Shown here one piece after another: positions 13,740 to 42,945 of a DNA stretch of 51,623 nt. Below the pieces are notes generated by a model. The model made no database searches and was not told the DNA's origin. It saw only the letters and a list, made by a program, of their open reading frames with translations. Position 1 is the first letter of the stretch. Every line of letters starts with the position of its first letter. Source of the stretch: an uncultured Clostridium sp. (GTDB lineage: Bacteria; Bacillota; Clostridia; TANB77; CAG-508); the NCBI GenBank assembly GCA_947061115.1, contig CAMSMU010000002.1, positions 1 to 51,623 on the forward strand, read 5' to 3'. A program made the position numbers and the translations under genes.

Positions 13740-13740
13740 G

Positions 13741-14835: not shown

Positions 14836-14842
14836 GGGGGGG
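14836..14842. repeat. G7 homopolymer forming the SD of the priming glycosyltransferase
   Basis: taaGGGGGGGattacaGTG read directly. Confidence 0.9.
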
Positions 14843-14848
14843 ATTACA

Positions 14849-15553: not shown

Positions 15554-16342
15554 ATGAAAGATATACAAATAGTAGTGGCAACGCATAAAAAATATCAAAT
15601 GCCTAAACAAGAAATATATTTACCACTACATGTAGGGAGTAAAGGAAAAGAGAAAATTGGATACCAAACTGATGATATTGGAGATAATATTTCAGACAAA
15701 AATCCATATTTTTGTGAATTAACAGGATTATATTGGGCATGGAAAAATTTAGATGCAAAATATATTGGTTTATGCCATTATAGAAGACATTTTTCAGTAA
15801 GAAAAATAATTACAACAAATGAAAATAAGAAATTCAATAAAATACTAAATGAAAGACAAGCTAGAGAATTATTAAAAAACACAGACATAATTTTACCTAA
15901 AAAAAGAAATTATTATATAGAAAATTTATACTCACATTATAAACATACAATGTATATAGAAACATTAGATGAAACTAAAAAGATAATAGAAGAAAAATAT
16001 CCAGAATATGTAGAAGAATTTAAAAAATTACACAAAAGAAAAAAAGCACATATATTTAATATGCTTATAATGAAAAAAGAAATATTAGAAGAATATTGCA
16101 TATGGCTATTCGATATTTTATTTGAATTAGAAAATAGAATAGATGTAACCAAATATGATTCATTTCATTCAAGATTTTTTGGAAGAGTATCAGAACTTCT
16201 TTTAGATATATGGATTAATACAAACAAACTTGAATATAAAGAAATAGAGTTTGTTGATATGCAAAATATAAACTGGATAAAAAAAGGAACAGCGTTCTTA
16301 TTAGCTAAATTTACAGGAAAAAAATATACAAAAAGTTTTTAA
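15554..16342 (+). CDS. DUF4422-family glycosyltransferase
   Basis: IQIVVATHKKYQMP...YLPLHVG...ISDKNPYFCELTGLYWAWKN is the characteristic DUF4422 N-terminus. Confidence 0.75.
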   Translation: MKDIQIVVATHKKYQMPKQEIYLPLHVGSKGKEKIGYQTDDIGDNISDKNPYFCELTGLYWAWKNLDAKYIGLCHYRRHFSVRKIITTNENKKFNKILNERQARELLKNTDIILPKKRNYYIENLYSHYKHTMYIETLDETKKIIEEKYPEYVEEFKKLHKRKKAHIFNMLIMKKEILEEYCIWLFDILFELENRIDVTKYDSFHSRFFGRVSELLLDIWINTNKLEYKEIEFVDMQNINWIKKGTAFLLAKFTGKKYTKSF

Positions 16343-16354
16343 ATTGGGGGAAAA

Positions 16355-17578
16355 ATGAACAAAAGTAGATTGAATAATATATTAGTTTTTATATTAATAG
16401 TATTTTTTGAACCACAAATTTTTAAAGAAAATGCATTTAAAGGTGTTGGATATGTAGATCAAATTTATAAAATACTTAAAATATTATCTTTTGCTGTCGT
16501 TTTATTAGTTTATACATATAAAAAAACAAAATATTCAAAAATAGTATTATCTGTTTTTGCTCTGCAACTAATAACTTTTATATCAACTATAATTAACAAA
16601 GGTAGTGTTATGAGGTTTATAGGACCAGCTATTACAACAGTTACAATGGTTATGATAGCAGAAATATTAATTAGTAGAAAAATTATAGTAGAAGTATTAA
16701 AAAAAGTTAATATATATTTTGTAATCTGTTTTATTTTAAACTTAATATCAATAATTATGATAGATGTATTTAAACTTACAAATTTTACAAAAATATACTT
16801 CTTAGGAATCGATAATAGATTTATATTCACTTTATTACCATGGATTGTTTCAGAAGGAATAGTTAGTATACTAGAAAATAGAAAATTATCTAAAAGATGG
16901 TTTTGGTGTGTTATTGCATCAGAATTAGTTTTACTTTATAAATTTAGTGTTGCAGCAATGATTGCGGTAATACTATTTATCTTATTATATTTTATAAATA
17001 ATAAGATAAATATTGCTAAATATAGTAAAATAACATTATATTGTTATGTAATACTAAATGTATTAATTGTATTCTTTAATATCCAAAATTATTTTACCCC
17101 AATGCTTAATATAGTAGATAAGGATGTAACCTTTTCAGGAAGAACATTTTTGTGGGATGGAGTTAAAGAAGAGTTCTTAAAAAGTCCAATTTTAGGAAAT
17201 GGAATGCAAAGCGAAGAATATGACAAATCATTTTTCTATAAAAGTACAGCACCATATTATTTAAGTTTTGCGAAAGTTGTGCATGCACATAATTCAGCAA
17301 TGACCATAATTTATAGAGGTGGAGGATTAGCAATATTAACATATTTATATATATTATATTATTGTACAGATAAAATAAAGAAGAATTACAAAAATCCACT
17401 TGCTAATTTATTTATAGTTTCAATAGCAATAATATTTATGCTATCAATATTTGATACCATGGACTTTGCAGGATTGTATTTTATAATAACACTTGCAATA
17501 AATATGAAAAAGATTATGTATGAAAATAAAGATATCGAAGTAAAATATTTAAGTGATAAATATACTGAAAAAATTTAA
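16355..17578 (+). CDS. wzy: O-antigen polymerase/ligase-family membrane protein (Wzy-like)
   Basis: About 10 TM helices, an external loop with HAHNSAMTIIYRGG, and cps-locus context. Confidence 0.7.
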   Translation: MNKSRLNNILVFILIVFFEPQIFKENAFKGVGYVDQIYKILKILSFAVVLLVYTYKKTKYSKIVLSVFALQLITFISTIINKGSVMRFIGPAITTVTMVMIAEILISRKIIVEVLKKVNIYFVICFILNLISIIMIDVFKLTNFTKIYFLGIDNRFIFTLLPWIVSEGIVSILENRKLSKRWFWCVIASELVLLYKFSVAAMIAVILFILLYFINNKINIAKYSKITLYCYVILNVLIVFFNIQNYFTPMLNIVDKDVTFSGRTFLWDGVKEEFLKSPILGNGMQSEEYDKSFFYKSTAPYYLSFAKVVHAHNSAMTIIYRGGGLAILTYLYILYYCTDKIKKNYKNPLANLFIVSIAIIFMLSIFDTMDFAGLYFIITLAINMKKIMYENKDIEVKYLSDKYTEKI

Positions 17579-17621
17579 TATATATATTTATAGCAGATAA
17601 AGTATATGCAGGAGAAATAAT

Positions 17622-18602
17622 ATGGAAGAATTAATAACTGTAGTAGTTCCAATATATAAAGTAGAAGATTGTCTTACAATATGTATTGATTCTATATTAA
17701 GCCAAACATATAGAAATTTAGAAATTATATTAGTAGATGATGGATCACCAGATAATTGTAGTAAAATATGTGATGAATATGGAAAAAAAGATAAGCGTGT
17801 AAAAGTAATTCACAAAGAAAATGGTGGATTATCAGATGCACGAAATGCGGGAATGAAAATAGCTACAGGGAAATACATTACATTTATAGATTCAGATGAC
17901 TATGTAAGTAATGATTATGTTGAATATCTATATAATTTATTAAAAAAATATAATGTTAAATTATCAATATGTGACTTTAAAAAAGTGTGGAAAGAAACAG
18001 ATATAACAGCAAAAGAGGAAACAAAAATAGAAGTACTTAATAGTGAAAAAGCCTTTAAAAATTTATTATTTAGTCAAGGAATAGATATATCTGCATGGGC
18101 AAAATTATATCAAATAGACTTATGGGAAAATTATGAATTTCCAAAAGGAAAATGTTATGAAGATTCAGCAATAATATATAAACTAATAGATAGAGCAGAA
18201 AATGTTGCTTTTGGAAATAAGCAATGTTATTATTATGTTGCAAGACCAGGTTCTATTTCTAAACAAAAAGGGTTTAACAAAAATGAAGAAGACTATATAG
18301 AAAATACAAAACAAATGCTTAGTTTTATTAGAGAAAAATATCCAAATATAAATTCAGCAACAAATAGATATGATTTATATTCAAATTTTAGAATACTGAG
18401 AATACTAATTTTTACAAAACCAAGAAATAGAAAAATGGAGAAAATAGTTATAAAAAATATAAATCAACATAAAAAGAAAGTATTTTTGGGTAAGGAAACA
18501 CCTAAAAGAGACAAATTAGCTATAATATTTTTAAGTATGGGATTACCAGTCTTTAAAATTTTCTGGTATATATATAGTAAAATCACAGGGAGAATCTTAT
18601 AA
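17622..18602 (+). CDS. Family 2 glycosyltransferase
   Basis: VVVPIYKVEDCL...ILVDDGSPD...GLSDARNAG...FIDSDD motifs. Confidence 0.85.
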   Translation: MEELITVVVPIYKVEDCLTICIDSILSQTYRNLEIILVDDGSPDNCSKICDEYGKKDKRVKVIHKENGGLSDARNAGMKIATGKYITFIDSDDYVSNDYVEYLYNLLKKYNVKLSICDFKKVWKETDITAKEETKIEVLNSEKAFKNLLFSQGIDISAWAKLYQIDLWENYEFPKGKCYEDSAIIYKLIDRAENVAFGNKQCYYYVARPGSISKQKGFNKNEEDYIENTKQMLSFIREKYPNINSATNRYDLYSNFRILRILIFTKPRNRKMEKIVIKNINQHKKKVFLGKETPKRDKLAIIFLSMGLPVFKIFWYIYSKITGRIL

Positions 18603-18619
18603 AATTAGGAGAAAAATAT

Positions 18620-19720
18620 ATGAGTAAATATGATTATTTGATAGTAGGAGCAGGATTATTTGGATCAATATTTGCATATGAGATGACAAAAAGAGGTAAA
18701 AGCTGTCTTGTAATAGATAAAAGACCACATGTTGGAGGAAATATATACACAGAAAGAAAAGACAATATTAATGTACATAAATATGGTGCACATATATTTC
18801 ACACAAATAATAAAGAAATATGGCAATATATTAACCAATTTGCAGAATTTAATAGATATACAAATTCACCTATTGCATTATATAAAAACGAACTATATAA
18901 TATGCCATTTAATATGAATACATTTAATAAATTATGGGGAGTTAAAACACCAGAAGAAGCTAAACAAAAAATTGCAGAAGAAATAAGAGAAGCAAATATA
19001 CAAGAACCAAAAAATCTAGAAGAGCAAGCAATTAGCTTAGTAGGAAAAACGATTTATGAAAAACTTGTAAAAGGGTATACAGAAAAACAATGGGGAAGAA
19101 AATGTTCAGAATTACCAAGCTTTATTATAAAAAGATTACCTGTTAGGTTTACATATGATAACAATTATTTTAATGATAAATATCAAGGAATTCCAATAGG
19201 TGGTTATACGCAAATAATAGAAAAAATGTTAGAAAATGTAGAAGTATGGACAAATTGTGATTATTTTGATAATAAAGAGCAACTTGAAAATATAGCAAAT
19301 AAAATTATTTTTACAGGCCCAATAGATAAGTATTATAATTATAAATTTGGAGAATTAGAATATAGAAGTTTGAAATTTGAAACAGAGTTATTAAATGAAA
19401 AAAATCATCAAGGAAATGCAGTTGTAAATTATACAGAATATGAGATACCATATACAAGAATTATTGAACATAAACATTTTGAATTTGATACAATTAGTGA
19501 TAAAACCATAATAACAAAAGAATATCCAGATAATTGGACAAAAGATAAAGAACCATATTACCCTATTAATAATGATAAGAATAATGAATTATACGATAAA
19601 TACAAGCAATTAGCAGAAAAAGACAATAAAGTTATATTTGGAGGAAGATTAGGTCAATATAAATATTATGATATGGACAAAGTAATTGAAAGTGCACTTA
19701 AATGCATAACAAATATATAA
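18620..19720 (+). CDS. glf: UDP-galactopyranose mutase
   Basis: YDYLIVGAGLFGSIFA FAD fold, RPHVGGNIYT, GYTEKQWG and GRLGQYKYYDMD. Confidence 0.9.
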   Translation: MSKYDYLIVGAGLFGSIFAYEMTKRGKSCLVIDKRPHVGGNIYTERKDNINVHKYGAHIFHTNNKEIWQYINQFAEFNRYTNSPIALYKNELYNMPFNMNTFNKLWGVKTPEEAKQKIAEEIREANIQEPKNLEEQAISLVGKTIYEKLVKGYTEKQWGRKCSELPSFIIKRLPVRFTYDNNYFNDKYQGIPIGGYTQIIEKMLENVEVWTNCDYFDNKEQLENIANKIIFTGPIDKYYNYKFGELEYRSLKFETELLNEKNHQGNAVVNYTEYEIPYTRIIEHKHFEFDTISDKTIITKEYPDNWTKDKEPYYPINNDKNNELYDKYKQLAEKDNKVIFGGRLGQYKYYDMDKVIESALKCITNI

Positions 19721-19768
19721 TAATTTGTAGATACAAATTGATAAATATAGAATATATAGGAGCATAAA

Positions 19769-20785
19769 ATGATTTCAATAATAATACCAGTATATCAAGC
19801 ACAAGACTATATAGAAAGATGTTTAGAATCAATAAAAAATCAAAATGATAATAGTGATTTAGAAATAGTATGTGTAAATGATGGTTCAACAGATAATAGC
19901 AAAAAAATAATTGAAGACTTCAAATTAAAAAATAAAAATATAAAAGTAAAGATTATAGATAAGGAAAATACTGGAGTTAGTGATTCAAGAAATATAGGAA
20001 TAGAAAATGCCGAAGGTAAATACATAATGTTTGTAGATTCAGATGATGAATTAGAAACAAATGCTATAGAAGAATTACGAAAAGCTTTAAGCGATAATAT
20101 AGATGTAATAATATATAATTCATTACAAATTAAGAAAAATAATAAAAATAAAGAAAGAATTATTTTTAACGAAGAAAATGGTATTATTCCAGTAAAAAAG
20201 GTGTATGATGAACTAATAAGACATGCTGAACTAAATACTGTATGGCAATTTTTAATACTAAAAGATTTTATATTAGAAAATAAAATAAAATTTGACAATC
20301 AATATGCTGTAGGTGAAGATTTATTATTTAACTCAGATATGTTTACCTGTAATCCCCAAATATATTATCTTAATAAAATAATTTATAGATACAATTATAA
20401 TGAAAAAAGTGTAATGAGAAATTTAAAACAAGACAGTACACAAAAAAGAATAAACCAAACTTTAGAACTATATTGTAAATATTATGAATATATAAAAAAA
20501 TGGAAAATGGATAGTAAGGAAAATAGAGAGTATCTATCAAGTAAAGCAATTAATGTATTAAATTATGAACTAAGAAGTATTATATTATTGGATATTTCTA
20601 ACAAAGAAAAAATTAATATGCTGAAAGAAACTTTTGAAAATCCTAATATGATAGAAATAAGAAAAAACTTGTCAACAGATAAATACTTAATTAGAGAATC
20701 TAAGTATATATATACAAACAAAATATATTTATATTTTCTAATAAAATCATCAATTGAAATAATAAGAAAAATATTAAATGTATAA
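19769..20785 (+). CDS. Family 2 glycosyltransferase
   Basis: ISIIIPVYQAQDYI...VCVNDGSTD...GVSDSRNIG...FVDSDDE. Confidence 0.8.
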   Translation: MISIIIPVYQAQDYIERCLESIKNQNDNSDLEIVCVNDGSTDNSKKIIEDFKLKNKNIKVKIIDKENTGVSDSRNIGIENAEGKYIMFVDSDDELETNAIEELRKALSDNIDVIIYNSLQIKKNNKNKERIIFNEENGIIPVKKVYDELIRHAELNTVWQFLILKDFILENKIKFDNQYAVGEDLLFNSDMFTCNPQIYYLNKIIYRYNYNEKSVMRNLKQDSTQKRINQTLELYCKYYEYIKKWKMDSKENREYLSSKAINVLNYELRSIILLDISNKEKINMLKETFENPNMIEIRKNLSTDKYLIRESKYIYTNKIYLYFLIKSSIEIIRKILNV

Positions 20786-20802
20786 AGAAGAGGTATGAAT
20801 AA

Positions 20803-21870
20803 ATGAAAAAAGTAGGAATATTAACAATTAATGATATGAAAAATGTTGGAAACAGATTACAAAATTATGCGACACAAGAAGTTCTAAAAAATTTAGGATG
20901 TGAAGCTGAAACAATACATAATTCAGAAAAGATGTATAATGGAAACTATTATAGAATAATAAGAAAAAAATTAGCAAATATATATAAAATAGTTTTTGGA
21001 AGAAAAAAATACATTAGACATTATTATTTTATGCAGTTTGAAAAAAATATTAGGCATTCAAAATATATGATAGATTACAAACATATTCCAAAAGAGTTAA
21101 ATAATGAGTATGATTATTTTGTAGCAGGAAGTGATCAAATTTGGAACCCAACATGGGGAAGAATGTCAGATATCGACTTTTTATCATTTGCTGATTATAA
21201 CAAAAGAATATCTTTTGCTGCAAGTATGGGAATAGGATATATCCCAAAAGACTTTGAAAATTTTTATAAAGAAAAGGTAAAAGAATTAAAAAATGTATCA
21301 GTTAGAGAAGATAAAGCAAAAGAACTTTTAGAAAATTTGACAGATAGGAAAGACATAGAAGTATTAATTGATCCAACAATGTTACTTAAAACAGAAGAAT
21401 GGGACAAGGTAGCAAAAAGACCAAAATTCTTAGATAAAATGACTCATAAAAATATAATAGCGACATACTTTTTGGGAAAATTGTCAGAAGAAAGAAAAAA
21501 AGAAATAAATAGAATTGCAGAAGAAAACGACTGTGATATTATAAATATGTTAGAAACAAAAATAGGGCCAAGTGAATTTTTATACTTAGAAAAAAATGCA
21601 TTCTTAATATGTACAGACTCTTTTCACTCAAGTGTATTTGCAATTTTATATAATAGACCATTTTTAGTATTTAACAGAGAAGATAAAGAAGAAAGCATGA
21701 ATTCAAGGCTAGAAACATTACTTAATAAATTTAAATTGGATGATAGGAAATATACTGGAGAAATAACCAAAAAACAGCTAGAATGTAATTATGAAGAATC
21801 ATATAAGATTTTAGAAGAAGAAAGAGAAAAATCATATAATTTCTTAAAGAAATCTCTAGAAATAAAATAA
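20803..21870 (+). CDS. Polysaccharide pyruvyl transferase family protein
   Basis: VGILTINDMKNVGNRLQNYATQEVL N-terminus, GSDQIWNP and a C-terminal TDSFHSSVFAI motif typical of the family. Confidence 0.75.
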   Translation: MKKVGILTINDMKNVGNRLQNYATQEVLKNLGCEAETIHNSEKMYNGNYYRIIRKKLANIYKIVFGRKKYIRHYYFMQFEKNIRHSKYMIDYKHIPKELNNEYDYFVAGSDQIWNPTWGRMSDIDFLSFADYNKRISFAASMGIGYIPKDFENFYKEKVKELKNVSVREDKAKELLENLTDRKDIEVLIDPTMLLKTEEWDKVAKRPKFLDKMTHKNIIATYFLGKLSEERKKEINRIAEENDCDIINMLETKIGPSEFLYLEKNAFLICTDSFHSSVFAILYNRPFLVFNREDKEESMNSRLETLLNKFKLDDRKYTGEITKKQLECNYEESYKILEEEREKSYNFLKKSLEIK

Positions 21871-21892
21871 AAAATTTTAGAAAGGAATAATA

Positions 21893-23452
21893 ATGAAAGA
21901 AACAAGTAGAACAAAAAATTCAATATTTAATGTTAGTTCTAACCTTGTAGTATATGTAATAAAAAATTTACTAAGCTTTGTTGCAAGAACAATATTTATA
22001 AAAGTATTAGGAGAAATGTATTTAGGAGTAAATGGCTTACTTACTAATGTATTATCAATGTTATCATTAGCTGAATTAGGATTAAGTTCAGCAATAAGTT
22101 TTGGACTATATAAACCACTTGCAGATAAAGATAATGAAAAAGTAAGTTCTCTTATGACATTTTTTAAAAGAGTATATGAAGTAATAGGAGTTATAGTATT
22201 AATATTTGGAATAGTAATATATTTCTTCCTTAATAAAATAATAAAAGAATATGATTCAATACCACAACTTAATATTATATATATATTATATTTAATTAAT
22301 ACAGTATCAACATATTATACAGCATATAAAGAGATACTTATAACAGCTGACCAGAAAGCATATAAATTAACAAAAATAAATATTACATTTACAGTATTAT
22401 TATACATATTCCAAATAATATCATTATTATTATTTAAGAATTTCATAGTTTATTTAATTGTTCAATTTTTTATGCAAATAGCTCAAAAAATTGTAACAAA
22501 CCTTTATATAACAAAAGAATATAAAGAAATAAATTTCAAAAGTAATAAAAAAATAGAAAAGAGTACGTTGGCAACAATTAAAAAAAATGTTAAAGCAATG
22601 ATGTTCCATAAAATAGGAAACTATTGTATTAATGGAACAGATAATATTATAATAAGTACAATGATAAATGTATCAACAGTAGGTATATACTCAAATTATA
22701 ATATGATTATTACAACAGTAAACGAAATTATATTAACAATATATAATAATATAACAGCTAGCTTTGGAAATTTATTAGTTGAAGAAGACAATAAAAAAAG
22801 CCTTGAAATATATAAAAAAATGGATTTTTTAGCTTTTATTATATACAGCTTTTTTGGAACTATATTTGGTTGTGCAATTAGTAGATTTATACAAATATGG
22901 ATAGGCGAAAGTTATATATTAGAGGCTAGTATTGTTATGCTATTATCATTTAGCTTTTTCTTTACTGGTATTAGAATACCATGCTCTGTAACAAAAAATG
23001 CAGCAGGATTGTATAATGAAGATAAATGGGTACCTATTATACAATCAATAATTAATTTGGTTTTATCTATAGCCTTAGCAAAATATATTGGACTGCATGG
23101 TGTTATATTAGGAACAATTGTCAGTGGAATATTACCTAATTTCTATAGGCCATATATTTTGTTTAAAAATATATTTAAAGAAAATTACACTAAATATCTA
23201 ATAAGTAATTATATTCCTTATATAATACACTTTATAATAATTTTAGGTATATCGTATATTATATGTAGCTTTATAAATATTTCAGGAGTAATAGGATTAA
23301 TATTATGTGTAATAATTGCAATGGTAATATATATAGTTTCTATATTAATATGTTTTAGAAAGACTGAAGAATTTACATTTTTCAAAGATATAATAAGAAA
23401 TATATTATCTAAAATATTAAACAAGATAAAACCAAATAGAAAAGAGGCATAA
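21893..23452 (+). CDS. wzx: Wzx-type polysaccharide flippase (MOP superfamily)
   Basis: 519 aa with 12 or more TM helices and cps-locus context. Confidence 0.8.
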   Translation: MKETSRTKNSIFNVSSNLVVYVIKNLLSFVARTIFIKVLGEMYLGVNGLLTNVLSMLSLAELGLSSAISFGLYKPLADKDNEKVSSLMTFFKRVYEVIGVIVLIFGIVIYFFLNKIIKEYDSIPQLNIIYILYLINTVSTYYTAYKEILITADQKAYKLTKINITFTVLLYIFQIISLLLFKNFIVYLIVQFFMQIAQKIVTNLYITKEYKEINFKSNKKIEKSTLATIKKNVKAMMFHKIGNYCINGTDNIIISTMINVSTVGIYSNYNMIITTVNEIILTIYNNITASFGNLLVEEDNKKSLEIYKKMDFLAFIIYSFFGTIFGCAISRFIQIWIGESYILEASIVMLLSFSFFFTGIRIPCSVTKNAAGLYNEDKWVPIIQSIINLVLSIALAKYIGLHGVILGTIVSGILPNFYRPYILFKNIFKENYTKYLISNYIPYIIHFIIILGISYIICSFINISGVIGLILCVIIAMVIYIVSILICFRKTEEFTFFKDIIRNILSKILNKIKPNRKEA

Positions 23453-23453
23453 T

Positions 23454-24407
23454 ATGAAAAAAGATTTAGTAACAATTATAACACCTTGCTATAATGGAGA
23501 AAAATACTTAAAAAGATATTTTGATTCAATAGTAAACCAAACATATAAAAATATAGAACTTATATTTATAAATGATGGTTCAAAAGATAAAACAGAAAGT
23601 ATAATAAAAGAATATGAAGGAAAAATAAAACAAAAAGGATACGAATTTAAATATATATATCAAGAAAATGCAGGACAAGCAGAAGCAGTAAATAAAGCAC
23701 TGCCAAATATATCTGGAGAATTTTTATATTGGATGGATTCAGATGATTACCTAGAGCCAGATAGTATAGAGAAACTTGTTAACTTTTTACAAAAAAATGA
23801 GAACTATAATATTGTACGAGGTAAAGTAAGAATAGTAAAAGATGGAAAAGAAATAAAAATAGGTAAGCCTAAAAAGAATGAAAGTGAATATATATTTGAA
23901 AATTATATTTTTGGAATAAATACATACTGTTATCCAGGAATATTCATGATTAGAATGGAAGAATTCGATAAAAATATAAAAGATAGAAAAATATATAGTC
24001 TAGTAGGAGTAGGGCAAAATTGGCAACTAATACTTCCAAATACATATAATCAAAAATGTGGTTTTGTAGATAGTATAGTATACAATTATAATATTATAGA
24101 AAATAGTCATTCAAGGACAGAACTAAAAAAGTTTGAAGATGAAATAAATAAAATTAATAGTGATATAGATGTTTTATATCACATACTAACTGATCTAAAA
24201 GTGTTAGATAAGTATAGAGAAAAGATTGAATTATTATATGATAGAAGTAGAATAAGAGTGGGATTAAAATACGATAAATATAATTATATAAATGAAATAC
24301 TAGAAAATGAAAAGAAAAATTATAAAAACTATAAAGAAAATAAAAAGTATTGGATATTAAAAAATAAGGCATTTTATAGATTATATAGAAAGGTAAAAAA
24401 TAGATGA
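23454..24407 (+). CDS. Family 2 glycosyltransferase
   Basis: VTIITPCYNGEKYL...IFINDGSKD...GQAEAVNKA...WMDSDD. Confidence 0.8.
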   Translation: MKKDLVTIITPCYNGEKYLKRYFDSIVNQTYKNIELIFINDGSKDKTESIIKEYEGKIKQKGYEFKYIYQENAGQAEAVNKALPNISGEFLYWMDSDDYLEPDSIEKLVNFLQKNENYNIVRGKVRIVKDGKEIKIGKPKKNESEYIFENYIFGINTYCYPGIFMIRMEEFDKNIKDRKIYSLVGVGQNWQLILPNTYNQKCGFVDSIVYNYNIIENSHSRTELKKFEDEINKINSDIDVLYHILTDLKVLDKYREKIELLYDRSRIRVGLKYDKYNYINEILENEKKNYKNYKENKKYWILKNKAFYRLYRKVKNR

Positions 24408-25534
24408 AGATTTTATTTATTGGAGGAACAGGAGTATTAAGTACAGACATAGTAAAACTATGTGTAAAAAAAGAATATGAAGTTTATATGATTAATAGAG
24501 GACACAATAATAAAAATGTAGATAAAAAAGTTAATATAATAATAGGAGATATTAATGATAAAGAATCTATAAAAGAAAAAATAGAAGGAATGACATTTGA
24601 TGTAGTAATAGATTTCTTAAGCTATATGGAAAATGAATTAAAAAGTAAATTAGAAATCTTTAATAACAAATGTGAACAATATATATTTATATCTTCTGCT
24701 ACAGTATATAGAAAAACTGAAAAAGGAGAGAGAATAACAGAAAAAACTGAAGCATCTAATCATGAATGGGATTATTCAGACAATAAATTAAAATGTGAAA
24801 AAGTATTAGAAGAAAATTATAAAAAGACAGGACAAAAGTATACAATAGTTAGACCATATATCACATATAGTGAAAAAAGAATACCAGATATGGCAATATC
24901 ACCAAAGAAATGGACTTTAGCTAATAGAATTATAAACCAAAAACCAGTACTATTATGGGATGATGGACAAGCAAGGTGTACTCTTACACAAACAAAGGAG
25001 TTTGCAGTAGGAATTGTAGGACTATTTTTAAATGAAAAAGCATATCAAGAAGTATTTCATATAACTACAGATCATACTTTAACATGGAAAGAAGCTACTA
25101 TATATATAGCAAAAGCATTAGAAACAGAACCTATTATTGCAAATGTACCAAGTGACTATATTATAAATGTAATGCCAGAATATAAAGGAGTACTTAAAGC
25201 AGATAAAGGTATTGATAGAGAATTTGATAATTCTAAAATAAAAAGTATAGTGCCAGAGTTTAATGCAAAAACAAAGTTTGAAGATGGAATTAAAGAAACA
25301 ATAGAATATTATAAAGAAGATACCAAAAGACAAGAAGTAGATTATCTTTGGGATGGTAGAGTTGATAGACTAATAAAAAAGTATTACAAGCAAAATAATA
25401 TAGAATATGATAAAAAAAGTCTATCAGTAAAGTCTTATAAAGAAGATATAAACTTAAAAAATAAGATTAAGTATTATATTGGAAAAAATATAGTATTATA
25501 TAAATTAATGCAAATTATTAGAAAGTTGGTGTAA
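24404..25534 (+). CDS. NAD-dependent epimerase/dehydratase (SDR) family protein
   Basis: KILFIGGTGVLS Rossmann motif and a YSDNK catalytic-type motif. Confidence 0.7.
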   Translation: MKILFIGGTGVLSTDIVKLCVKKEYEVYMINRGHNNKNVDKKVNIIIGDINDKESIKEKIEGMTFDVVIDFLSYMENELKSKLEIFNNKCEQYIFISSATVYRKTEKGERITEKTEASNHEWDYSDNKLKCEKVLEENYKKTGQKYTIVRPYITYSEKRIPDMAISPKKWTLANRIINQKPVLLWDDGQARCTLTQTKEFAVGIVGLFLNEKAYQEVFHITTDHTLTWKEATIYIAKALETEPIIANVPSDYIINVMPEYKGVLKADKGIDREFDNSKIKSIVPEFNAKTKFEDGIKETIEYYKEDTKRQEVDYLWDGRVDRLIKKYYKQNNIEYDKKSLSVKSYKEDINLKNKIKYYIGKNIVLYKLMQIIRKLV

Positions 25535-25537
25535 AAA

Positions 25538-26716
25538 TTGATAAACATAGAAAAAAAAGAACAATGTATGGGATGTAGTGCATGTTATAACATATGTCCT
25601 AAAAATGCTATAGAAATGTGTGAAGATAAAGAAGGATTTAAGTATCCAAAGATTAATAAAGAAAAATGTATAAACTGTGGACTATGTGAAAAGATATGCC
25701 CTATGATAAATGAAGCAAAAACTAATAATTTTGAAAAACCTAAGGTTTATGCTGCATGGAGCAAAAGTGAGAATATAAGATTAGATAGCACATCAGGAGG
25801 GATATTTTCAGAATTAGCAAATCAAATACTAAAAGAAGATGGATACATATGTGGTGCTGTATACAATAAAGAATGGAAAGTAGAACATCTACTTACAAAT
25901 GAAAAAAAAGAATTAGATAATATAAGAAGTTCAAAGTATTTGCAAAGTGATATAAATCTTATATATAGAGAAATAAAGGACAAGCTAACTGAAGGAATTA
26001 AAGTTCTATTTTGTGGTAGTCCTTGTCAAGTATCTGGACTATATAACTATTTAAATAAATCTTATGATAATTTGTATGCATGTGATTTTATTTGTAGAGG
26101 CATGAACTCTCCAAAAATATTTAAAATGTATATAAATAGTTTAGAAAATAAATATAAATCTAAAGTTAAAAAAATTAAATTTAAAAATAAAACATATGGA
26201 TGGCATAATTTTTCAACTAGAATAGACTTTGAAAATGGTAAGAAATACATAGGAATAAGATACATTGATTCCTTTATGGTGGGATACTTAAAATATACTG
26301 CATTTATGAGACCAGCATGTTATGAATGTAGATTTAAAGGTTTACCTAGAAAGGGAGATATAACATTAGCAGACTTTTGGGGAATAGAAAAAATAAATAA
26401 AACATTAGACAATGACATGGGAACATCTATGGTATTAATAAACTCAGAAAAAGGAAAAGAACTATTTGAAAAAGCAAAAGCTAATATAGAATCTACACAA
26501 ATAGATTCGGAAGATGTTTTCAATGATAATGTTTGTACATATAAGTCACCTGATAAGACAAAAGAAAGAGAACTTGTATTTGAAAATATTGATAAAATGA
26601 ATTGGGAAGAATTATGTAACAACTTTCTAAAACCACCAAAACTAAAATCTAGAATCAAGATATATATTAAAAGAAGTAAAATATATAGAAAATTAAAGAA
26701 AATAATAAAAAAGTAA
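25538..26716 (+). CDS. FrhB-family (coenzyme F420 hydrogenase/dehydrogenase beta-like) oxidoreductase with two N-terminal 4Fe-4S motifs
   Basis: CMGCSACYNICP and CINCGLCEKICP. The TTG start at 25538 is required to include the first Cys. Members of this family commonly accompany pyruvyl transferases in glycan loci. Confidence 0.7.
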   Translation: MINIEKKEQCMGCSACYNICPKNAIEMCEDKEGFKYPKINKEKCINCGLCEKICPMINEAKTNNFEKPKVYAAWSKSENIRLDSTSGGIFSELANQILKEDGYICGAVYNKEWKVEHLLTNEKKELDNIRSSKYLQSDINLIYREIKDKLTEGIKVLFCGSPCQVSGLYNYLNKSYDNLYACDFICRGMNSPKIFKMYINSLENKYKSKVKKIKFKNKTYGWHNFSTRIDFENGKKYIGIRYIDSFMVGYLKYTAFMRPACYECRFKGLPRKGDITLADFWGIEKINKTLDNDMGTSMVLINSEKGKELFEKAKANIESTQIDSEDVFNDNVCTYKSPDKTKERELVFENIDKMNWEELCNNFLKPPKLKSRIKIYIKRSKIYRKLKKIIKK

Positions 26717-26733
26717 TATTGGGAGAGAAATAA

Positions 26734-27315
26734 ATGGATAGAAGTATAGTAAATAGCTTAAAATACAGAAATAAACAAATTATATTTAGAAAGTATTCAA
26801 GAGTAACTATTGATAAGAGTGCTAATATTAGTGGAAATGGAAAAATAGCAATTGGAGATAAAGAAAATCCAAAATCAAAACAAGAAACAAGATTAAGCTT
26901 AGGAAAGAATAGCGAGTTAAATGTAAATGGAAACTTTAGTGTAGGATTTGGATCAGATATTAGAGTATTTAATAATGCAAAATTAGAAATTGGAAGCGGA
27001 TACTTAAATGCATTTGTTCAAATTGTTTGCTCTAAAAAAATATCTATAGGAAATAATGTTGCAATTGCCAGAGACGTAATAATTAGAGATACAGATGCAC
27101 ACGATATAATTGGAGAAGATCACAAAAAAGAAGCAGAAGTAAAAATAGGAAATCATGTTTGGATAGGAACTAGAGCAATTATAATGAAAGGAGTAACTAT
27201 TGGAGATGGTGCAATAGTAGGAGCAGGTGCAATAGTCACAAAAGATGTTCCAGAAAATTCAATAGTAGTAGGGGTCCCTGCAAAGGTAATAAAGGAAAAT
27301 ATAGAATGGAAGTAA
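26734..27315 (+). CDS. Left-handed beta-helix (hexapeptide) O-acetyltransferase
   Basis: [49 protein letters not shown]. Confidence 0.8.
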
Positions 27316-28511
27316 AAGAAAAAGCAAAGAAAAACCGTAGAACCCTTACAGCTGTACACACACACACACACACGGACGGTATATTTAATAAAAAGAAAAA
27401 TATAATAATTTGTGTAATAATAATATTTGTAATATTAATTTTAACAGTAATATATTCTTATAACTTTTCTAGTTACCCAATAATAGGAGGAGCAATTTCT
27501 TCATTTAATAAAGAATGTGAAGTAACAAGAGTAAAAGGAGTAGGCAATTTTCAAGAAAAAACGTATAAATGGGTAGGTGGAGTTTTAGGAAAAGATGGGT
27601 GTATATATGCAATACCAAATTGCTATGATAAAGTATTAAAGATAGATCCTGAAACTGAAAAAGTAAAAGAATTTGGTAATTTATCTAAAAATAAATTCAA
27701 ATATACTGGAGGCTGTACATACAAAGACAAAATATATGGATTTCCAAGAGCTAGTAATAAATTACTTGAAATAGATCCTAAAAAAGAAGAAGTAAAAGAG
27801 ATTGATTTAGCATTAAATTATGATGAAGATGGAAAAGACTACTATTATTCAGGCACATTATATAAAAATATAGCATATCTAGCACCTCGAAGCTCAAATC
27901 ACATATTAGCAATTAACTTAGATGATTATTCAACAAAGAAAATAGGAGAAGGAGTTGTACCAGAAAGTTATCAATATGATGGAGCAATTTTACATTATAA
28001 TGGTCTAATATACTTTTTTCCAAAAGTATATTCTCAAGTAATGGTGTTAAATCCAAAAACAGATGAAATAAAATTCATTGGCGATAAAATGAATGTACAA
28101 ATTTTTGGAGGAGCTATTGCTAAAAATGGAAATATATATTCTTTTACAGCTTATTCAGAGGGTGGAATAGTAAGAATAAATACTAAAGAAGAAAAAGTAG
28201 ATGTGATTTGCAAAGATACAGTAGAAACAGGGTTTTATGGAACAAAGTTAGCATCTAATGGAAAAATGTATGGAGTAGTAGGACATTCAAATAAAATATA
28301 TGAATTTGATCCAGAAACTGAAAAAGTAAAGGTAATAAGAGAATTAGTAAAATTAAATAATGTTGTAAGATGTGCTGGCGGAGTTTTAGATAGAAATGGA
28401 AATTTATGGTTTATACCAGCATATGGAGAAAAAATAATAAAATTAGAAATTGAACAAAAAGTGCCACTTAATAATAGAATTCTAGAATCAGTACAATTTT
28501 CTAATTACTAA
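27306..28511 (+). CDS. Membrane-anchored protein with about seven 45-aa propeller-like repeats, function unknown
   Basis: Short cytoplasmic tail, one TM helix ([18 protein letters not shown]), then repeats of the form GG-x4-(D/N)G-x-IY-x-P-x7-(L/V)-x-IDP-x-T-x-K-V. Confidence 0.6.
27356..27373. repeat. (AC)9 dinucleotide microsatellite inside codons 17-23 of the propeller-protein gene
   Basis: Direct read acacacacacacacacac, translated as HTHTHT. Confidence 0.95.
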
Positions 28512-28604
28512 TAGATTTTATAAATTATACAATTTATGAATATTGCATTAAAATATACAGTATGATAAAATATGAATAATTTAAATTTATATGAGAGGAA
28601 CACT

Positions 28605-29309
28605 ATGGAAGAAGAATTTGATATATTAGAGATACTAAAGATGTTTTGGAATAAAAGGATACAAATAATATTAATAATTTTATTTTTTATGATTATTGGA
28701 TATATATACACAGTATATTTTATACAACCACAATATAGATCTGAATCTACAATAATATTGGCCAATAATAATGAAAGTGAAAATTATAATGAAACATTAA
28801 CTCAAAGTGAAGTTATGTTAAATGATAAACTTGTAGCTACATATAGAGAACTTGCCAAAAGTAGTTCTGTTATAGAAGAAGTCATAGCAAACTTAAGACT
28901 ACAAGATAGATATACAGAAGAAAGTTTAGGAAAAAAGGTAGAAGTAACATTAGTTACTAATACTCAAGTTATAAAAATATCAGCAACAGACGAAAATCCA
29001 GAATTAGCAGCAAATATAACAAATGAAGTTACTAAAGTTTTTTCACAAAAAGTATCAGAAGTATATAATATAAATAATATAAAAGTTTTAAGTGATGCAG
29101 AACCTTCAAACGATCCAAGCAATATTAGTTTAAAGAAAAATTTATTCATGTTTTTTGGAATAGGATTTATAATATCTATAGTGTATGTAATAATATTAAA
29201 TACACTAGATTCAACTATAAAGAATAAAAAAGACATAGAAGATATAACTGGACTTAATGTATTAGCAGAAATACCAGTATTTGATATTGATAAGGAGAGA
29301 AAAAAATAA
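28605..29309 (+). CDS. Wzz/CpsC-type chain-length determinant (BY-kinase transmembrane modulator)
   Basis: EEEFDILEILKMFWNKR, a TM helix, YRSESTIIL and a second TM helix near the C-terminus. Start moved to ATG 28605 (SD GAGAGGAA). Confidence 0.8.
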   Translation: MEEEFDILEILKMFWNKRIQIILIILFFMIIGYIYTVYFIQPQYRSESTIILANNNESENYNETLTQSEVMLNDKLVATYRELAKSSSVIEEVIANLRLQDRYTEESLGKKVEVTLVTNTQVIKISATDENPELAANITNEVTKVFSQKVSEVYNINNIKVLSDAEPSNDPSNISLKKNLFMFFGIGFIISIVYVIILNTLDSTIKNKKDIEDITGLNVLAEIPVFDIDKERKK

Positions 29310-30211
29310 TGAAAGAAGAAGTAATATCTCATTTAGAACCAAAATCACCTATATCAGAAGTGTTTAGAGCATTAAGAACAAATTTACAATTTATGTATAA
29401 ATTAGATACATGCCAAACAATATTAATAACAAGCACAGTTCAATCAGAAGGTAAAAGCTTAGTTGCATCAAATTTAGCTACAACTTTTGCACAAGCTGGA
29501 AAAAGAACATTACTAATAGATTCAGATATGAGAAGACCAAGACAATATACAATATTTTCAACTAAAAGTTCACCAGGGCTTTCAAATTATTTATCTAATA
29601 TTATTAGTAATGAAAAGAAAGATAATCTAAGTGCAGCAGAGTGCATAGTAAAAACAGAAATAGAAAATTTGTCACTACTTCCAGCAGGAGATATACCTCC
29701 TAATCCATCTGAATTATTATTATCTTCTAGAATAGAAGAACTAATAAAAGAGGTATCAGAAAATTTTGATACTGTAATATTTGATGGTGCACCATGCCTG
29801 TTAGTTACAGACTCAGTAATTTTATCAAGATTAGTGAGCCAAACACTATTAGTTACAAGTTACAAAAATACTAAAAAGGATGATTTAAGAGAAGTAAAAA
29901 AGAGAATAGATAATATAGGTGGAAATATTGTAGGAGTAGTATTAAATAAAGTTGAAATATCAGCAAAAAAATATGATAGTAAATATTATTATTATTCTAA
30001 TACAGCAAAAGAAGAAATAGTAGAAGATAATAAAATTTCTATGAAAACAAATATAAAAGATGCTGAAAAAAATATAGAAAATACTAAAAATGAAATAGAG
30101 AAAGAGCAACAAGAAAATAAAGAAAACAGTATAGAAATGATAGATAACGAAAATGATATATCAGATAAAACAAAGGAAATATTAGCAGATATAGAAAAAT
30201 TTGAAGAATAA
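29309..30211 (+). CDS. CpsD/YwqD-type tyrosine autokinase (BY-kinase) with a long acidic C-terminal tail
   Basis: Walker A-like SEGKS, LLIDSDMRRP, VIFDGAP and the tyrosine cluster KYDSKYYYYS. Confidence 0.85.
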   Translation: MKEEVISHLEPKSPISEVFRALRTNLQFMYKLDTCQTILITSTVQSEGKSLVASNLATTFAQAGKRTLLIDSDMRRPRQYTIFSTKSSPGLSNYLSNIISNEKKDNLSAAECIVKTEIENLSLLPAGDIPPNPSELLLSSRIEELIKEVSENFDTVIFDGAPCLLVTDSVILSRLVSQTLLVTSYKNTKKDDLREVKKRIDNIGGNIVGVVLNKVEISAKKYDSKYYYYSNTAKEEIVEDNKISMKTNIKDAEKNIENTKNEIEKEQQENKENSIEMIDNENDISDKTKEILADIEKFEE

Positions 30212-30240
30212 AATATAGTGACAGTTATAAAGGAGAAAAA

Positions 30241-30999
30241 ATGGTAGATATACACTCACATATTCTTCCAGGAATAGATGATGGAGCAAGCAATATAAAT
30301 GAAACATTTGCAATGATACAAGAAGCCTGTGATGCTGGATTTACAGACATTTTTTCTACTTCACATTATATAGAAAATGAATACGAATTTAGCAAAATAG
30401 AAAGAGAACATATAATTAATGCAATAATGAAAAAAGTAGAAGAAAAAGGTATAAATATAAAAATACATGTAGGTGCAGAAGCATATATATCTAATAACTT
30501 ACCACAATTAATAAAAGACAAAAAAGTTGCAACATTAGGAAACAGTAGATATGTTTTATTTGAATTACCACTAAATGCTAAAGTGATGTACACAGAAAGT
30601 ATAATAGATGAGCTTATAAGGATGAATTTAATTCCAGTTATTGCACATCCTGAAAGATATGAAATGGTGAAAAAAGAACCTAATATAGTATTAGAATGGA
30701 TTGCAAGAGGAACTTTAATGCAATGTAATTATGGAGGTATAATAGGCATATATGGAAATGAAGCTCAAAATACTTTAGTGAAATTATTAAAAGCAGATGC
30801 AGTACATTTTTTAGGAACAGATTGTCATAGATCAAACAGTATATATACAAAAATGGAAGAAATAGAAAAAAGTTTTATAAAAGAAATAGGACAAGACAAA
30901 TTTAATATATTAAGTATAGAAAATCCTAAATCAGTTATAAATAATGAAAAAATACAAATACAAAAACCTAATATGATAAAAAATAGTTTTTTTAGTTGA
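30241..30999 (+). CDS. CpsB/YwqE-type PHP-family tyrosine phosphatase
   Basis: MVDIHSHILPGIDDGA N-terminus, IAHPERY and GTDCH motifs. Confidence 0.85.
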   Translation: MVDIHSHILPGIDDGASNINETFAMIQEACDAGFTDIFSTSHYIENEYEFSKIEREHIINAIMKKVEEKGINIKIHVGAEAYISNNLPQLIKDKKVATLGNSRYVLFELPLNAKVMYTESIIDELIRMNLIPVIAHPERYEMVKKEPNIVLEWIARGTLMQCNYGGIIGIYGNEAQNTLVKLLKADAVHFLGTDCHRSNSIYTKMEEIEKSFIKEIGQDKFNILSIENPKSVINNEKIQIQKPNMIKNSFFS

Positions 31000-40430: not shown

Positions 40431-40484
40431 ATGAAAAACGCTATAATACTTGAGGCTGTATATATATATATATATATATCGTAA
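40431..40484 (+). CDS. Candidate 17-codon small ORF B (MKNAIILEAVYIYIYIS) containing a (TA)10 tract
   Basis: Paralog of the ORF at 6451-6501, with conserved promoter, SD-like GGAAAG and ATGAAAAAC start. Confidence 0.3.
   Translation: MKNAIILEAVYIYIYIS
40459..40479. repeat. (TA)10T microsatellite
   Basis: Direct read, 21 nt of alternating TA. Confidence 0.95.
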
Positions 40485-40666: not shown

Positions 40667-40712
40667 TAAAAAAGCAAGAAAGATAAAATGCAAAAACAAA
40701 GGAGAATGAGTT

Positions 40713-42347
40713 ATGAACAAATTAAAAAAAAATAGTAAAAATAAAGAGAATATAATAAATTATAAAATCTTTAGGGGCGATTGTCAGTCGCATACAGGAA
40801 TAACATTAATATCATTAATAGTAACAATAATAGTGTTACTGATTTTGGCAGGAATAGCAATAAATTTAAGCATAGGAGATAATGGACTATTTAATAGAGC
40901 AAAATCCGCAGTAGAAAAATATAAGATAGCAGCTAATGAAGAAAGTGAATTTTTTGAAGAATTAGATAAAAGCTTTGCAGTAGGGAATAGTAAATTACCA
41001 ATAAGAACACAGGTTATTGGTTATGATCAATATATTGATAATTGTAGTAATGGTATATCAGCAATTCAAATGTTTAATGGAGCATTAGGAGAAAATAAAT
41101 CTATAATAGAAAGAATTATATATCTAATTATTAGTGAAGACTATGATAAGAATGATGAAATTGTTATACAAGAATTGCAAGATCTAGAAAATGAATTTAA
41201 TCGTATATATGAAGAAAGTTGTTTTAAGTTTCATCAACCAATTAAAATTTATTATAATACAACTAAATATATAGAAATTTCATCAAATTTAGATCATATT
41301 AATATAGATTTTTCAACAAGTGAAACAATAAAGAATTCAGTTACAAAACTTCAAGGTGAAATGCAAAAAATTGATAATGAAATTAATGAACTCAATAAAA
41401 AAGAAGAAACGGTAAGAAAAATAATATCAGAATTAGAAATAAAAAATGAAGAATTATTAAAATATGATTATTTAGATAATATAGAATTAAAAGAAGTTGA
41501 ATTAAATGGAGAATTAGAAAGTGAAAAAATAGAATCAATTAACCAAATGTTAAAAAATATAAATGATATTATAAAATTGCAAAGTAGTTCAGAAGAAAAA
41601 CTGTCAGAAATATATAGTAAATTGTGTAGAATAAATGAGCTAATTTATAATGGATCTAATGATGAAATAATTGAAATAAAACAAGAAATTGATTTAATAG
41701 CAAATGAAATGAGAACAATAAATGAAACTTTTATAATAGATATCCAAGGAGAAAAAATAACTATTAAAATAAGAGATTTAAATACAAATTATTTAGGAAA
41801 AGATAATACTCCTTTATATTTAGATGTATCTAATAAAGAAAGATCACAAGAATCATTAGATAATGCAATTTATATTATTGATTGTGAACGAGCTAATTTA
41901 GGAGCTATATTAAATAGAGTAGACCATACAATTAAATATTATACAAGAATAAAGGATGTGTTGGAAAGTAGAATAAAAAATAAAGAAGATAGAAATAAAA
42001 GATTGGCAATTGTAAGTTTAGAAGAGATGCAATATTGTTTAGACAGGATCAGAACATTAATGATAAGAAGTCATAATGGAGTAAATTCAATAAAGGATAA
42101 GTATGGAATCAAGTTAGAGATAGATCAGATATTATTAGAAATAAATAGAATAGCAACGCATACTATGATAGAAAATGATACAGGTCTATTAAATGGTCAA
42201 TGGAATAAAAATATAAATGTAACACTTGAAAGTTTAGCTATAAAAGAAATAAATAATGATACAGAAGAAAATATTCAAGCAGGAATAAGAAAACTAGAAG
42301 AAAGTATTATTAAAATATATGAAAATCGTAAGGCATTAGCAAAATAA
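40713..42347 (+). CDS. Flagellin-homology protein with a pilin-like N-terminal hydrophobic segment. It lacks the flagellin D0/export regions.
   Basis: - Residues 29-50, GITLISLIVTIIVLLILAGIAI, are preceded by a basic leader.
- IRTQVIGYDQYIDNCSNGISAIQMFNGALGE resembles flagellin MRGQIRGL..ASKNSQDGISLIQTAEGAL.
- ERANLGAILNRVDHTI resembles flagellin RAxLGAxxNRLxxxI.
- SD AAAGGAGA lies upstream. Confidence 0.6.
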   Translation: MNKLKKNSKNKENIINYKIFRGDCQSHTGITLISLIVTIIVLLILAGIAINLSIGDNGLFNRAKSAVEKYKIAANEESEFFEELDKSFAVGNSKLPIRTQVIGYDQYIDNCSNGISAIQMFNGALGENKSIIERIIYLIISEDYDKNDEIVIQELQDLENEFNRIYEESCFKFHQPIKIYYNTTKYIEISSNLDHINIDFSTSETIKNSVTKLQGEMQKIDNEINELNKKEETVRKIISELEIKNEELLKYDYLDNIELKEVELNGELESEKIESINQMLKNINDIIKLQSSSEEKLSEIYSKLCRINELIYNGSNDEIIEIKQEIDLIANEMRTINETFIIDIQGEKITIKIRDLNTNYLGKDNTPLYLDVSNKERSQESLDNAIYIIDCERANLGAILNRVDHTIKYYTRIKDVLESRIKNKEDRNKRLAIVSLEEMQYCLDRIRTLMIRSHNGVNSIKDKYGIKLEIDQILLEINRIATHTMIENDTGLLNGQWNKNINVTLESLAIKEINNDTEENIQAGIRKLEESIIKIYENRKALAK

Positions 42348-42607: not shown

Positions 42608-42898
42608 ATGTTAAATTTTATAATAGGATATTTAGTAATAATTAATTGTATATCAATGATTTTTATGTATATGGATATGAAAACAGATTTAATTAAACTA
42701 GAAAAAGGAACTATAAATTTTATATATGCACTATTAGCAATAATTGGTGGAAGTGTAGGAATATTAGTTACTTCTCAAATGTTTGGATATAAAAAAGAAG
42801 AGAAAATAATAAAAAGATTTATACCATTTATAGTATTTTTAGAAGTTATAATTATAGGAATAATTATAATAAAAAAATATGAATTGAATATATTGTAA
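42608..42898 (+). CDS. Small membrane protein, DUF1294-like
   Basis: 96 aa with three hydrophobic helices. LLAIIGGSVGILVTSQMFGYKK resembles the DUF1294 core. Confidence 0.45.
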   Translation: MLNFIIGYLVIINCISMIFMYMDMKTDLIKLEKGTINFIYALLAIIGGSVGILVTSQMFGYKKEEKIIKRFIPFIVFLEVIIIGIIIIKKYELNIL

Positions 42899-42918: not shown

Positions 42919-42945
42919 AATAACCTCATGAAGAGGTTATTTTCG
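42919..42945 (+). terminator. Rho-independent terminator
   Basis: aataacctc-atgaa-gaggttatt hairpin plus T-run. Confidence 0.7.

Follow-up and report, generated by a model that had tools for sequence, protein, structure and literature searches.

Three tandem flagellin D1-type bundles behind a pilin-like helix in a candidate surface protein of an uncultured Clostridium

In this study, we report the in silico analysis of a flagellin-related gene located in a stretch of 51,623 nucleotides (nt; hereafter, the window) of an uncultured Clostridium sp. (assembly GCA_947061115.1, contig CAMSMU010000002.1). Its product consists of three tandem flagellin D1-type bundles, has no D0 and starts with a basic leader followed by a pilin-like hydrophobic helix. 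A preliminary description, made from the letters and translations of this DNA, had already proposed D1-type helices, the absence of both ND0 and CD0 and a prepilin-like N-terminus with Ser in the place of Glu5, and these three proposals are sustained by the data presented below. It must be added that the N-terminal segment proved to be a module shared with a large number of proteins carrying unrelated cargoes. The reading that we favour, with moderate confidence, is that of a non-flagellar cell-surface protein held by a pilin-derived signal-anchor. The coordinates of the gene and its features are collected in Table 1.

Three stretches of the protein matched Pfam Flagellin_N (E = 1.2e-13; 51.7 bits, which reaches the cut-off of 26.6), the best of them being residues 435–496, within unit 3, and residues 382–422 gave a weak match to Flagellin_C (14.8 bits, below the cut-off of 23). 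The best of the NCBIfam flagellin models reached 3.6e-23, its 82.7 bits remaining far under the cut-off of 426, and a PDB sequence search with the whole protein matched 60 flagellins, the best at 2.1e-11. Judged by sequence, the homology to flagellins is far beyond chance. The flagellin motifs ISxIQ...GAL, LxRIxEL, RAxLGAxxNR and LLNG are kept. The translation also reproduced all the motifs quoted in the preliminary description at the positions given there: IRTQ...ERI at residues 97–135, ERANLGAILNRVDHTI at residues 392–407 (nt 41886–41933), DRIRTLMIRSHNG at residues 444–456 and G29-ITLIS at the N-terminus, with Ser34 at position +5.

An AlphaFold2 model was built from the 17-sequence alignment of the family described below (mean predicted local distance difference test score, pLDDT, 83.8; predicted template modelling score, pTM, 0.76). 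It repeats three times the succession of a long helix, a shorter helix, a beta-hairpin and a long helix, within the limits of the units given in Table 1. Unit 1 comprises an ND1a-like helix (residues 97–141), an ND1b-like helix (149–171), a beta-hairpin (177–189) and a long third helix (203–249); when residues 90–260 were searched alone, residues 97–201 aligned with positions 52–160 of flagellin (E = 2.5e-6). On the model, the third helix is assigned as CD1-like, an assignment with no sequence support. Unit 2 is predicted as a complete D1, with ND1a at residues 270–313, ND1b at 316–333, the hairpin at 336–353 and a CD1 helix at 375–418 that carries ERANLGAILNRVDHTI. Searched alone (261–422), its residues 271–415 matched positions 54–220 of a 270-aa flagellin, that is, the whole D1 (E = 1.8e-8). 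Unit 3 has a shortened ND1a (424–454), ND1b (460–483), a short beta segment and a terminal helix (518–543) which stops where the 'R..LGA' motif of flagellin CD1 would start; in the search with residues 423–544 alone, residues 432–498 aligned with flagellin 77–142 (E = 7e-8). In a Foldseek comparison of the model with the PDB, flagellins filled the top 45 places, the best local fit being the D1 of the Bacillus subtilis flagellin chain 5gy2_C (template modelling score 0.74, root-mean-square deviation 2.8 Å over 170 columns). The expectation of D1-like bundles also held at the level of predicted structure. The preliminary description had counted at least one further N-like repeat; such a repeat is indeed present, and the total is corrected to three D1-like units.

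The units could not be aligned significantly with one another in pairwise comparisons (z between 0.7 and 1.8). A recent internal duplication was therefore rejected, each unit being recognisable only through its comparison with flagellins, and the lack of detectable mutual similarity suggests that the D1 repeats are old.

With respect to D0, the matches in the Pfam and PDB searches begin at around residue 52 or 77 of the flagellin or profile, and neither residues 1–50 nor CD0 were ever covered. The C-terminus of the protein falls inside the third CD1-like helix, and its N-terminus, made of the basic leader and the hydrophobic helix, carries no type III export signal of the kind found in flagellin. 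D0 forms the inner tube of the flagellar filament and the extreme N-terminus of flagellin is the type III export signal; as both are absent, the protein cannot be a flagellar filament subunit, and it can be neither exported nor polymerised as a normal flagellin, as had been anticipated. The preliminary description had also considered that a mis-called start might conceal a normal ND0 upstream. In this regard, the frame of the gene is filled with stops upstream of the start codon, and no open reading frame (ORF) of at least 50 aa was found in any frame of the 378-nt AT-rich intergenic region. Therefore, no ND0 can be encoded there.

At the N-terminus, the top Kyte-Doolittle windows begin at residues 30–36, in the only strongly hydrophobic stretch of the protein. 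Gly29 is followed by ITLISLIVTIIVLLILAGIAI, which reproduces the pilin-type layout of a leader ending in Gly and approximately 21 hydrophobic residues. In the model, the leader has a pLDDT below 50, so it is predicted to be disordered; a leader homologous to it ('MNKLKKN...') is also present in the relative P0003. Helix 32–54 is followed by a break at residues 55–58 (GDNG), by helix 59–88 and then directly by the first flagellin-like unit. The model contains neither a pilin beta-sheet head domain nor a continuous alpha1 helix of about 50 residues, which would speak against a pilin. The N_methyl family of Pfam (PF07963/IPR012902) was matched with E = 0.19 and 11.8 bits, below its cut-off of 21.2.

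This N-terminal segment is by far more widespread than the protein that carries it here. In a word-indexed protein search with the whole protein, 42 of the 44 matches covered the N-terminal module only, which elsewhere is fused to FGE-sulfatase, Glug, LRR_5, fn3 or Flg_new domains, or to no recognised domain. With E ≤ 1e-3 as the limit, an exhaustive search of 1.84 billion representatives (clusters at 50% identity) yielded 12,182 matching representatives; among the 150 best of these 12,182, the majority aligned only to the N-terminal region. The module motif was carried by 187 of 193 retrieved proteins. Their consensus was [KR]-G-I-T-L-[IV]-A-L-V-[VI]-T-I-I-[VI]-L-L-I-L-A-G-V-x-I-N-x-x-L-G-[DE]-N-G-[IL]-[FI]-x-[KR]-A-x-x-A-x-x-x-Y-x-x-A, a conservation which is somewhat inflated because the set was chosen by similarity to the protein under study, with G and T prescribed in the regular expression. 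The +5 residue was Ala in 149 of the 187 proteins, Ser in 30, Thr in 5, Gly in 3 and Glu in none, and the residue preceding Gly was K or R in 124.

A profile made of 30 diverse copies of the module was compared with the PDB, and above noise only type IV pilins were matched (MshA, 0.004; Streptococcus sanguinis PilE1, 0.011; geopilin, 0.012 and 0.025; PilA, 0.017), the next matches having E > 3. The pilin alignments start at the residue after the cleavage-site Gly, which is the N-terminus of the mature pilin. Sub-threshold matches to GspG, to a PpdD-type pilin and to PilA were obtained with 25, 14 and 10 of the 30 module segments, respectively, the NCBIfam pilin models being in all cases far below their cut-offs; N_methyl was matched by 10 of the 17 family members, always under threshold and with a best value of 0.0012. 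No similarity to pilins was found C-terminal of the membrane helix. Given the residue-by-residue correspondence between G/xTLIxL...ILAGIAIN in the module and G/FTLIEL...ILAAIAIP in the type IVa (T4a) pilins, descent from a class III signal peptide would be the most economical reading of the module. Additionally, the Gly is conserved, as is the Lys or Arg before it, and the helix is strictly kept, which suggests that the module is recognised by a prepilin-type peptidase or that its helices pack into one shared filament core.

The combination of the module with flagellin-like units is not restricted to the window. How widespread the fusion is was addressed by the exhaustive search together with a profile search run locally, which gave at least 17 sequences with this architecture, namely the protein under study, its full-length homologue P0002 (62% identical) and 15 further 50%-identity representatives. 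Flagellin_N matches all 17 (best 1e-46) and Flagellin_C 13 of them; their lengths range from 239 to 681 aa, with about 1.5 to 3 D1 units each. The module is absent only in the fragment P0049 and in variants of P0002 truncated by an insertion sequence (IS), which stand outside the 17. Faster searches recovered little of the family: a word-indexed search with the module removed found only P0002, and one with the family profile only P0002 and P0052, so that the exhaustive search was needed, probably because low-complexity words crowd out candidates. A profile scan of genome contigs gave one locus, which matched the module only, and the scan of metagenome contigs found no locus.

The genes of the family are solitary or occur as tandem paralogs among housekeeping genes, and never in pilus or flagellar operons. 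The P0052 locus has an aminoacyl-tRNA synthetase or HD gene on one side and fatty-acid synthesis genes on the other, and P0113 lies directly upstream of rpsL-rpsG-fusA. P0002 is flanked by another module-bearing ORF and a glycosyltransferase-4 gene. Two paralogs (535 and 633 aa), P0057 being one of them, follow each other in tandem between upp and transketolase in locus L013 (8329–11902), both with the module and several flagellin-like units, and L014 is arranged in the same way. The module-only relatives P0035 and P0012 are solitary too. No synteny was found between the flanks in the window and the loci of the relatives. Flagellar genes (fliS, fliD, flg and others) were absent from the window and from the neighbourhoods tabulated for relatives, and no gene for a peptidase A24, PilB/PilC or other type 4 filament component was found in the window or in the neighbourhood gene tables of eight relatives.

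In the reading that we favour, the basic leader would stay on the cytoplasmic side; the single hydrophobic helix, a putative derivative of pilin alpha1-N without Glu5, would insert with its N-terminus inside and its C-terminus outside. This helix would retain the protein in the membrane, with or without removal of the leader after Gly29 by a prepilin peptidase. About 450 residues would then reach out of the cell, the three flagellin D1-type bundles forming a helical array which, without the D0 coiled coil, would undergo neither flagellar type III export nor polymerisation into a flagellar filament. Most likely, this array would serve as a rigid protein-binding or scaffold surface, adhesin-like in character, and the protein would be one of many cargoes shown by uncultured low-GC Clostridia by means of the same N-terminal module. 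The identity of the domains, the lack of D0, the sharing of the module, the family and the solitary setting of its genes are shown by the data, and topology, surface location, cleavage of the leader and the binding role are inferred; the N-in/C-out topology is deduced from the positive-inside rule and from the other cargo domains, which are of extracellular type.

The closest functional analogy for such display is offered by the archaeal 'bindosome' of Sulfolobus, in which sugar-binding proteins with class III signal peptides depend on the Bas assembly system and the PibD peptidase (PMC3047682). In both cases non-pilin ectodomains would be brought to the surface, and held there, by a pilin-type signal peptide. 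However, the bindosome is archaeal, has the dedicated Bas system and PibD and carries other cargo; no system of this kind was identified for the module.

Several points weigh against the favoured reading. The surface location and any binding partner are putative, and the statistical support for homology between module and pilins is weak in the PDB profile search (E between 0.004 and 0.025). FliL, an ordinary single-pass membrane protein, was matched by 18 of the 30 module segments, so the pilin ancestry is unproven by statistics alone. Finally, it is difficult to see why a segment serving only as an anchor should be so extremely conserved unless it has a partner dedicated to it, for instance a peptidase, the core of a filament or machinery for sorting.

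This last point favours a different explanation. The protein might be a true modular type 4 pilin, cleaved after Gly29 by a prepilin peptidase, extracted from the membrane by a filament machine encoded elsewhere in the genome and, for want of Glu5, located at the tip as GspK or S. sanguinis PilA, with the D1 array as its functional module. Strict conservation of the helix over unrelated cargoes is what would be expected of subunits sharing one filament core, and many Clostridia have type IV pilus genes. Pilins onto which other domains are grafted occur widely, with 264 architectures described (PMC8179133), and modular pilins such as S. sanguinis PilB and PilC (PMC8179133, PMC9934059) have in common with the module the short leader ending in Gly, about 21 hydrophobic residues matching those of T4a pilins, an unrelated module grafted behind and many cargoes on one N-terminus; the frequent K/R before the Gly also fits. 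Unlike them, the protein has Ser for Glu5 (Ala in most other module proteins), does not reach the IPR012902/PF07963 signature, has no predicted head domain and is encoded outside pilus operons. The supplementary text of the modular-pilin survey, in a possibly incomplete form, contained no flagellin cargo (PMC8179133). Glu5-less tip minor pilins of the GspK/PilK type and S. sanguinis PilA offer another parallel, as they also lack Glu5 and have degenerate class 3 signal peptides missed by standard tools (PMC9934059). But each of them is one specialised subunit whose gene shares an operon with those of its partner pilins, whereas in the module the absence of Glu5 is the rule over many unrelated proteins, and one Glu5-less cap per filament fits poorly with many paralogs. 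Minor pilins usually share operons with their machinery, and neither the window nor the surroundings of the family and module genes inspected include a peptidase A24, PilB or PilC. In the model, the helix would break at GDNG and pass straight into the cargo, and the N_methyl and NCBIfam pilin models stayed far under their cut-offs. We regard the modular-pilin explanation as possible but less likely than the favoured reading: Glu5 is universally absent, there is no head domain, the chain breaks behind the membrane helix and the genes are not linked to pilus genes, all of which fits better with display of a membrane-retained protein.

Three further explanations have to be considered. Both parent domains are filament-forming and D1 provides axial and lateral contacts in flagellar filaments, so one might think of a new homopolymeric filament, a type 4/flagellar hybrid with the pilin-like helices as core and the D1 bundles as outer layer, for which the tandem paralogs of L013 could also be adduced. 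This is improbable: the protein is without the Glu5 on which canonical type 4 polymerisation relies and without the D0 needed in flagellin polymerisation, assembly genes are not nearby, and a rare, solitary family with 1.5–3 units per protein does not resemble a major structural subunit. Very improbable is an inverted topology, with a cytoplasmic, membrane-tethered D1 array binding FliS or flagellin as a regulator or sink. The D1-type helices and the equivalents of the Arg and Leu of flagellin 'LQRxxEL', kept in all three units, would agree with it, but by the positive-inside rule the leader, with its charge of +5, should be cytoplasmic and the acidic rest of the protein (isoelectric point, pI, 4.8) should be outside, and the other module cargoes (LRR, fn3, Glug, FGE-sulfatase-type) are typically extracellular. 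Moreover, FliS binds CD0, which this protein lacks. Finally, that the gene is a flagellin in decay, has a mis-called start or is an artefact of the assembly, and has no function of its own, could be suggested only by the unusual architecture and by one IS-truncated relative (L002), and the probability of this explanation is close to nil. The 544-codon frame is open throughout and preceded by a good ribosome-binding site, the structure model is confident, no upstream frame is able to encode ND0, and the same fusion recurs in the full-length homologue and in 15 more distant members; this conservation of the architecture across the family effectively refutes it.

With respect to the flagellins themselves, the protein shares with canonical FliC/Hag the three-helix bundle and beta-hairpin of D1, and its best structural matches are flagellin D1 domains. 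In contrast to FliC/Hag, it has neither ND0 nor CD0, lacks the type III export signal, contains D1 three times and bears an N-terminal membrane helix. The use of the flagellin fold for purposes other than propulsion has precedents, namely Campylobacter FlaC, a non-motility flagellin homologue secreted as an immunomodulator (PMC4863622), and the cell-surface flagellin p5 of Sphingomonas A1, involved in surface ligand binding, whose structures (PDB 2ZBI, 3K8V, 3K8W) are among the sequence and fold matches of the protein. Neither of the two is known to have a membrane helix or tandem D1 domains. Both FlaC and p5 retain D0 and use the flagellar apparatus for their export.

Table 1. Features of the gene and of its product; positions are those of the window.
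Feature	Residues	Position (nt)	Strand	Basis and remarks
Whole gene (544 aa plus stop)	1–544	40713..42347	+	ORF list and translation; product of about 63 kDa, pI 5.0
Ribosome-binding site AGGAG, 8 nt 5' of the ATG		40700..40704	+	Direct reading of the sequence
Basic hydrophilic leader, net charge +5	1–28	40713..40796	+	Translation; cytoplasmic by prediction
Gly29 and hydrophobic helix ITLISLIVTIIVLLILAGIAIN	29–54	40797..40874	+	Pilin alpha1-N-like; Kyte-Doolittle, AlphaFold2
GDNG turn and amphipathic helix	55–88	40875..40976	+	Second half of the shared module; consensus, AlphaFold2
D1-like unit 1	97–249	41001..41459	+	Sequence matches and AlphaFold2 secondary structure
D1-like unit 2 (complete D1)	270–418	41520..41966	+	Sequence matches and AlphaFold2 secondary structure
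D1-like unit 3	424–543	41982..42341	+	Sequence matches and AlphaFold2 secondary structure

The window has a guanine plus cytosine (G+C) content of 21–31% and includes spoIIIA genes, cotJA, polC, a capsule/exopolysaccharide cluster and pyrH-frr-uppS-cdsA-rseP. From this gene content, the host is a spore-forming member of the Clostridia. A yihY/BrkB gene lies directly upstream of the gene under study, and a small membrane protein and a HydABC-type hydrogenase are encoded downstream. The polysaccharide cluster is long (12567–30999) and devoted to the cell envelope, with two LCP-family genes, a sugar transferase, a Wzy-like polymerase, several GT2 genes, a UDP-galactopyranose mutase, a pyruvyl transferase, a flippase, and Wzz, tyrosine-kinase-like and CpsB genes; the organism thus invests heavily in surface structures. 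The small membrane protein just 3' of the gene (42608–42898) has 96 aa and three helices, gave no match in Pfam, PADLOC or PHROGs and is not kept beside the relatives; it is followed by the sole terminator-like hairpin of the region (42919–42941). On the 5' side, a perfect (TA)10.5 dinucleotide tract (40459–40479) is found about 235 nt before the start codon, and two imperfect direct repeats of 28–30 nt lie in the same intergenic region. The tract could be a slippage-prone element influencing expression. No Rfam family was matched in the window. A phage or defence origin of the protein was also considered and rejected, as PADLOC gave no match, PHROGs only a weak one to a family of unknown function in unit 3, and the fold search in BFVD only unspecific long-helix matches, e.g., to tape-measure proteins.

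Some additional observations concern the relatives. About ten members of the family (P0045–P0049, P0053, P0054, P0057, P0087, P0166) end with an extra motif of approximately 40 aa without Pfam match (…KW..KLKII.GEL.YIGTDE.E.KWA.E.GI…), which is missing from the protein under study and from P0002 and might form a small domain of its own for binding or docking. In L002 (9–2541), a relative of the P0002 type is shortened to 419 aa, without the module and half of unit 1, and directly adjoins a 344-aa transposase-like ORF, IS110-like by eye only, which indicates that the family is subject to disruption by insertion sequences. Regarding the module, a 67–76-aa ORF containing nothing else overlaps the start of a Big_2-domain ORF in L025 (15877–17228) and L026 (11682–13060), which may represent a split or frameshifted module-cargo gene. 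ORFs starting with the module were also seen in ten IMG/VR contigs classed as viral (L015–L024), interrupted in L022–L024 by a stop after about 23 residues. Directly 5' of the P0002 gene, an ORF fragment (L027, 2–274) has the module and an in-frame stop; together with L002 5263–6585, this indicates that module-bearing genes tend to sit close together. Module-bearing proteins of 76–128 aa were discarded as a matching 'major pilin' because they look like contig-end fragments or frameshifted pieces. A report on TANB77 pilins (PMC11680825) was set aside as a source for the module, since it concerns Tad-type pilins.

The literature searched on the motif, on flagellin-pilin architectures and on non-flagellar flagellins contained no description of the fusion, in agreement with the preliminary statement that this architecture has no described function. 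Both the flagellin D1 and the pilin-like helix are already known; it is their combination that was undescribed there. The module also appears to be undescribed as a class and is the more consequential lead. Its sharing shifts the question: in the place of an 'odd flagellin', there would be a single cargo within a general system of display. We put forward, tentatively and as a possibility still short of probable, that this module of about 60 aa ([KR]-G-ITLIALVVTIIVLLILAG-x-x-IN-x-x-LG[DE]NG plus an amphipathic helix) may represent a large class, as yet undescribed, of sorting signals which derive from pilins, lack Glu5 and occur in uncultured gut Clostridia. Its handling would fall to a machine dedicated to it, whether a prepilin peptidase together with a type 4 filament or an assembly resembling the bindosome, which would display many cargoes, among them the co-opted tandem D1 array. 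If this were true, the part of flagellin recognised by TLR5 would stand on the cell surface without a flagellum.

The flagellin D1 is usually discussed as a building block of the filament and as the ligand of TLR5. Its occurrence without D0, in triplicate and on a pilin-type helix would represent the co-option of the flagellin core for a surface role other than motility, and could allow such organisms to show flagellin-like epitopes whether or not they build flagella. Furthermore, the module connects the protein with a very great number of surface proteins that are still uncharacterised, all of which would be annotated by knowing how it is handled, and this handling may reveal a bacterial counterpart of the archaeal system of display through class III signal peptides.

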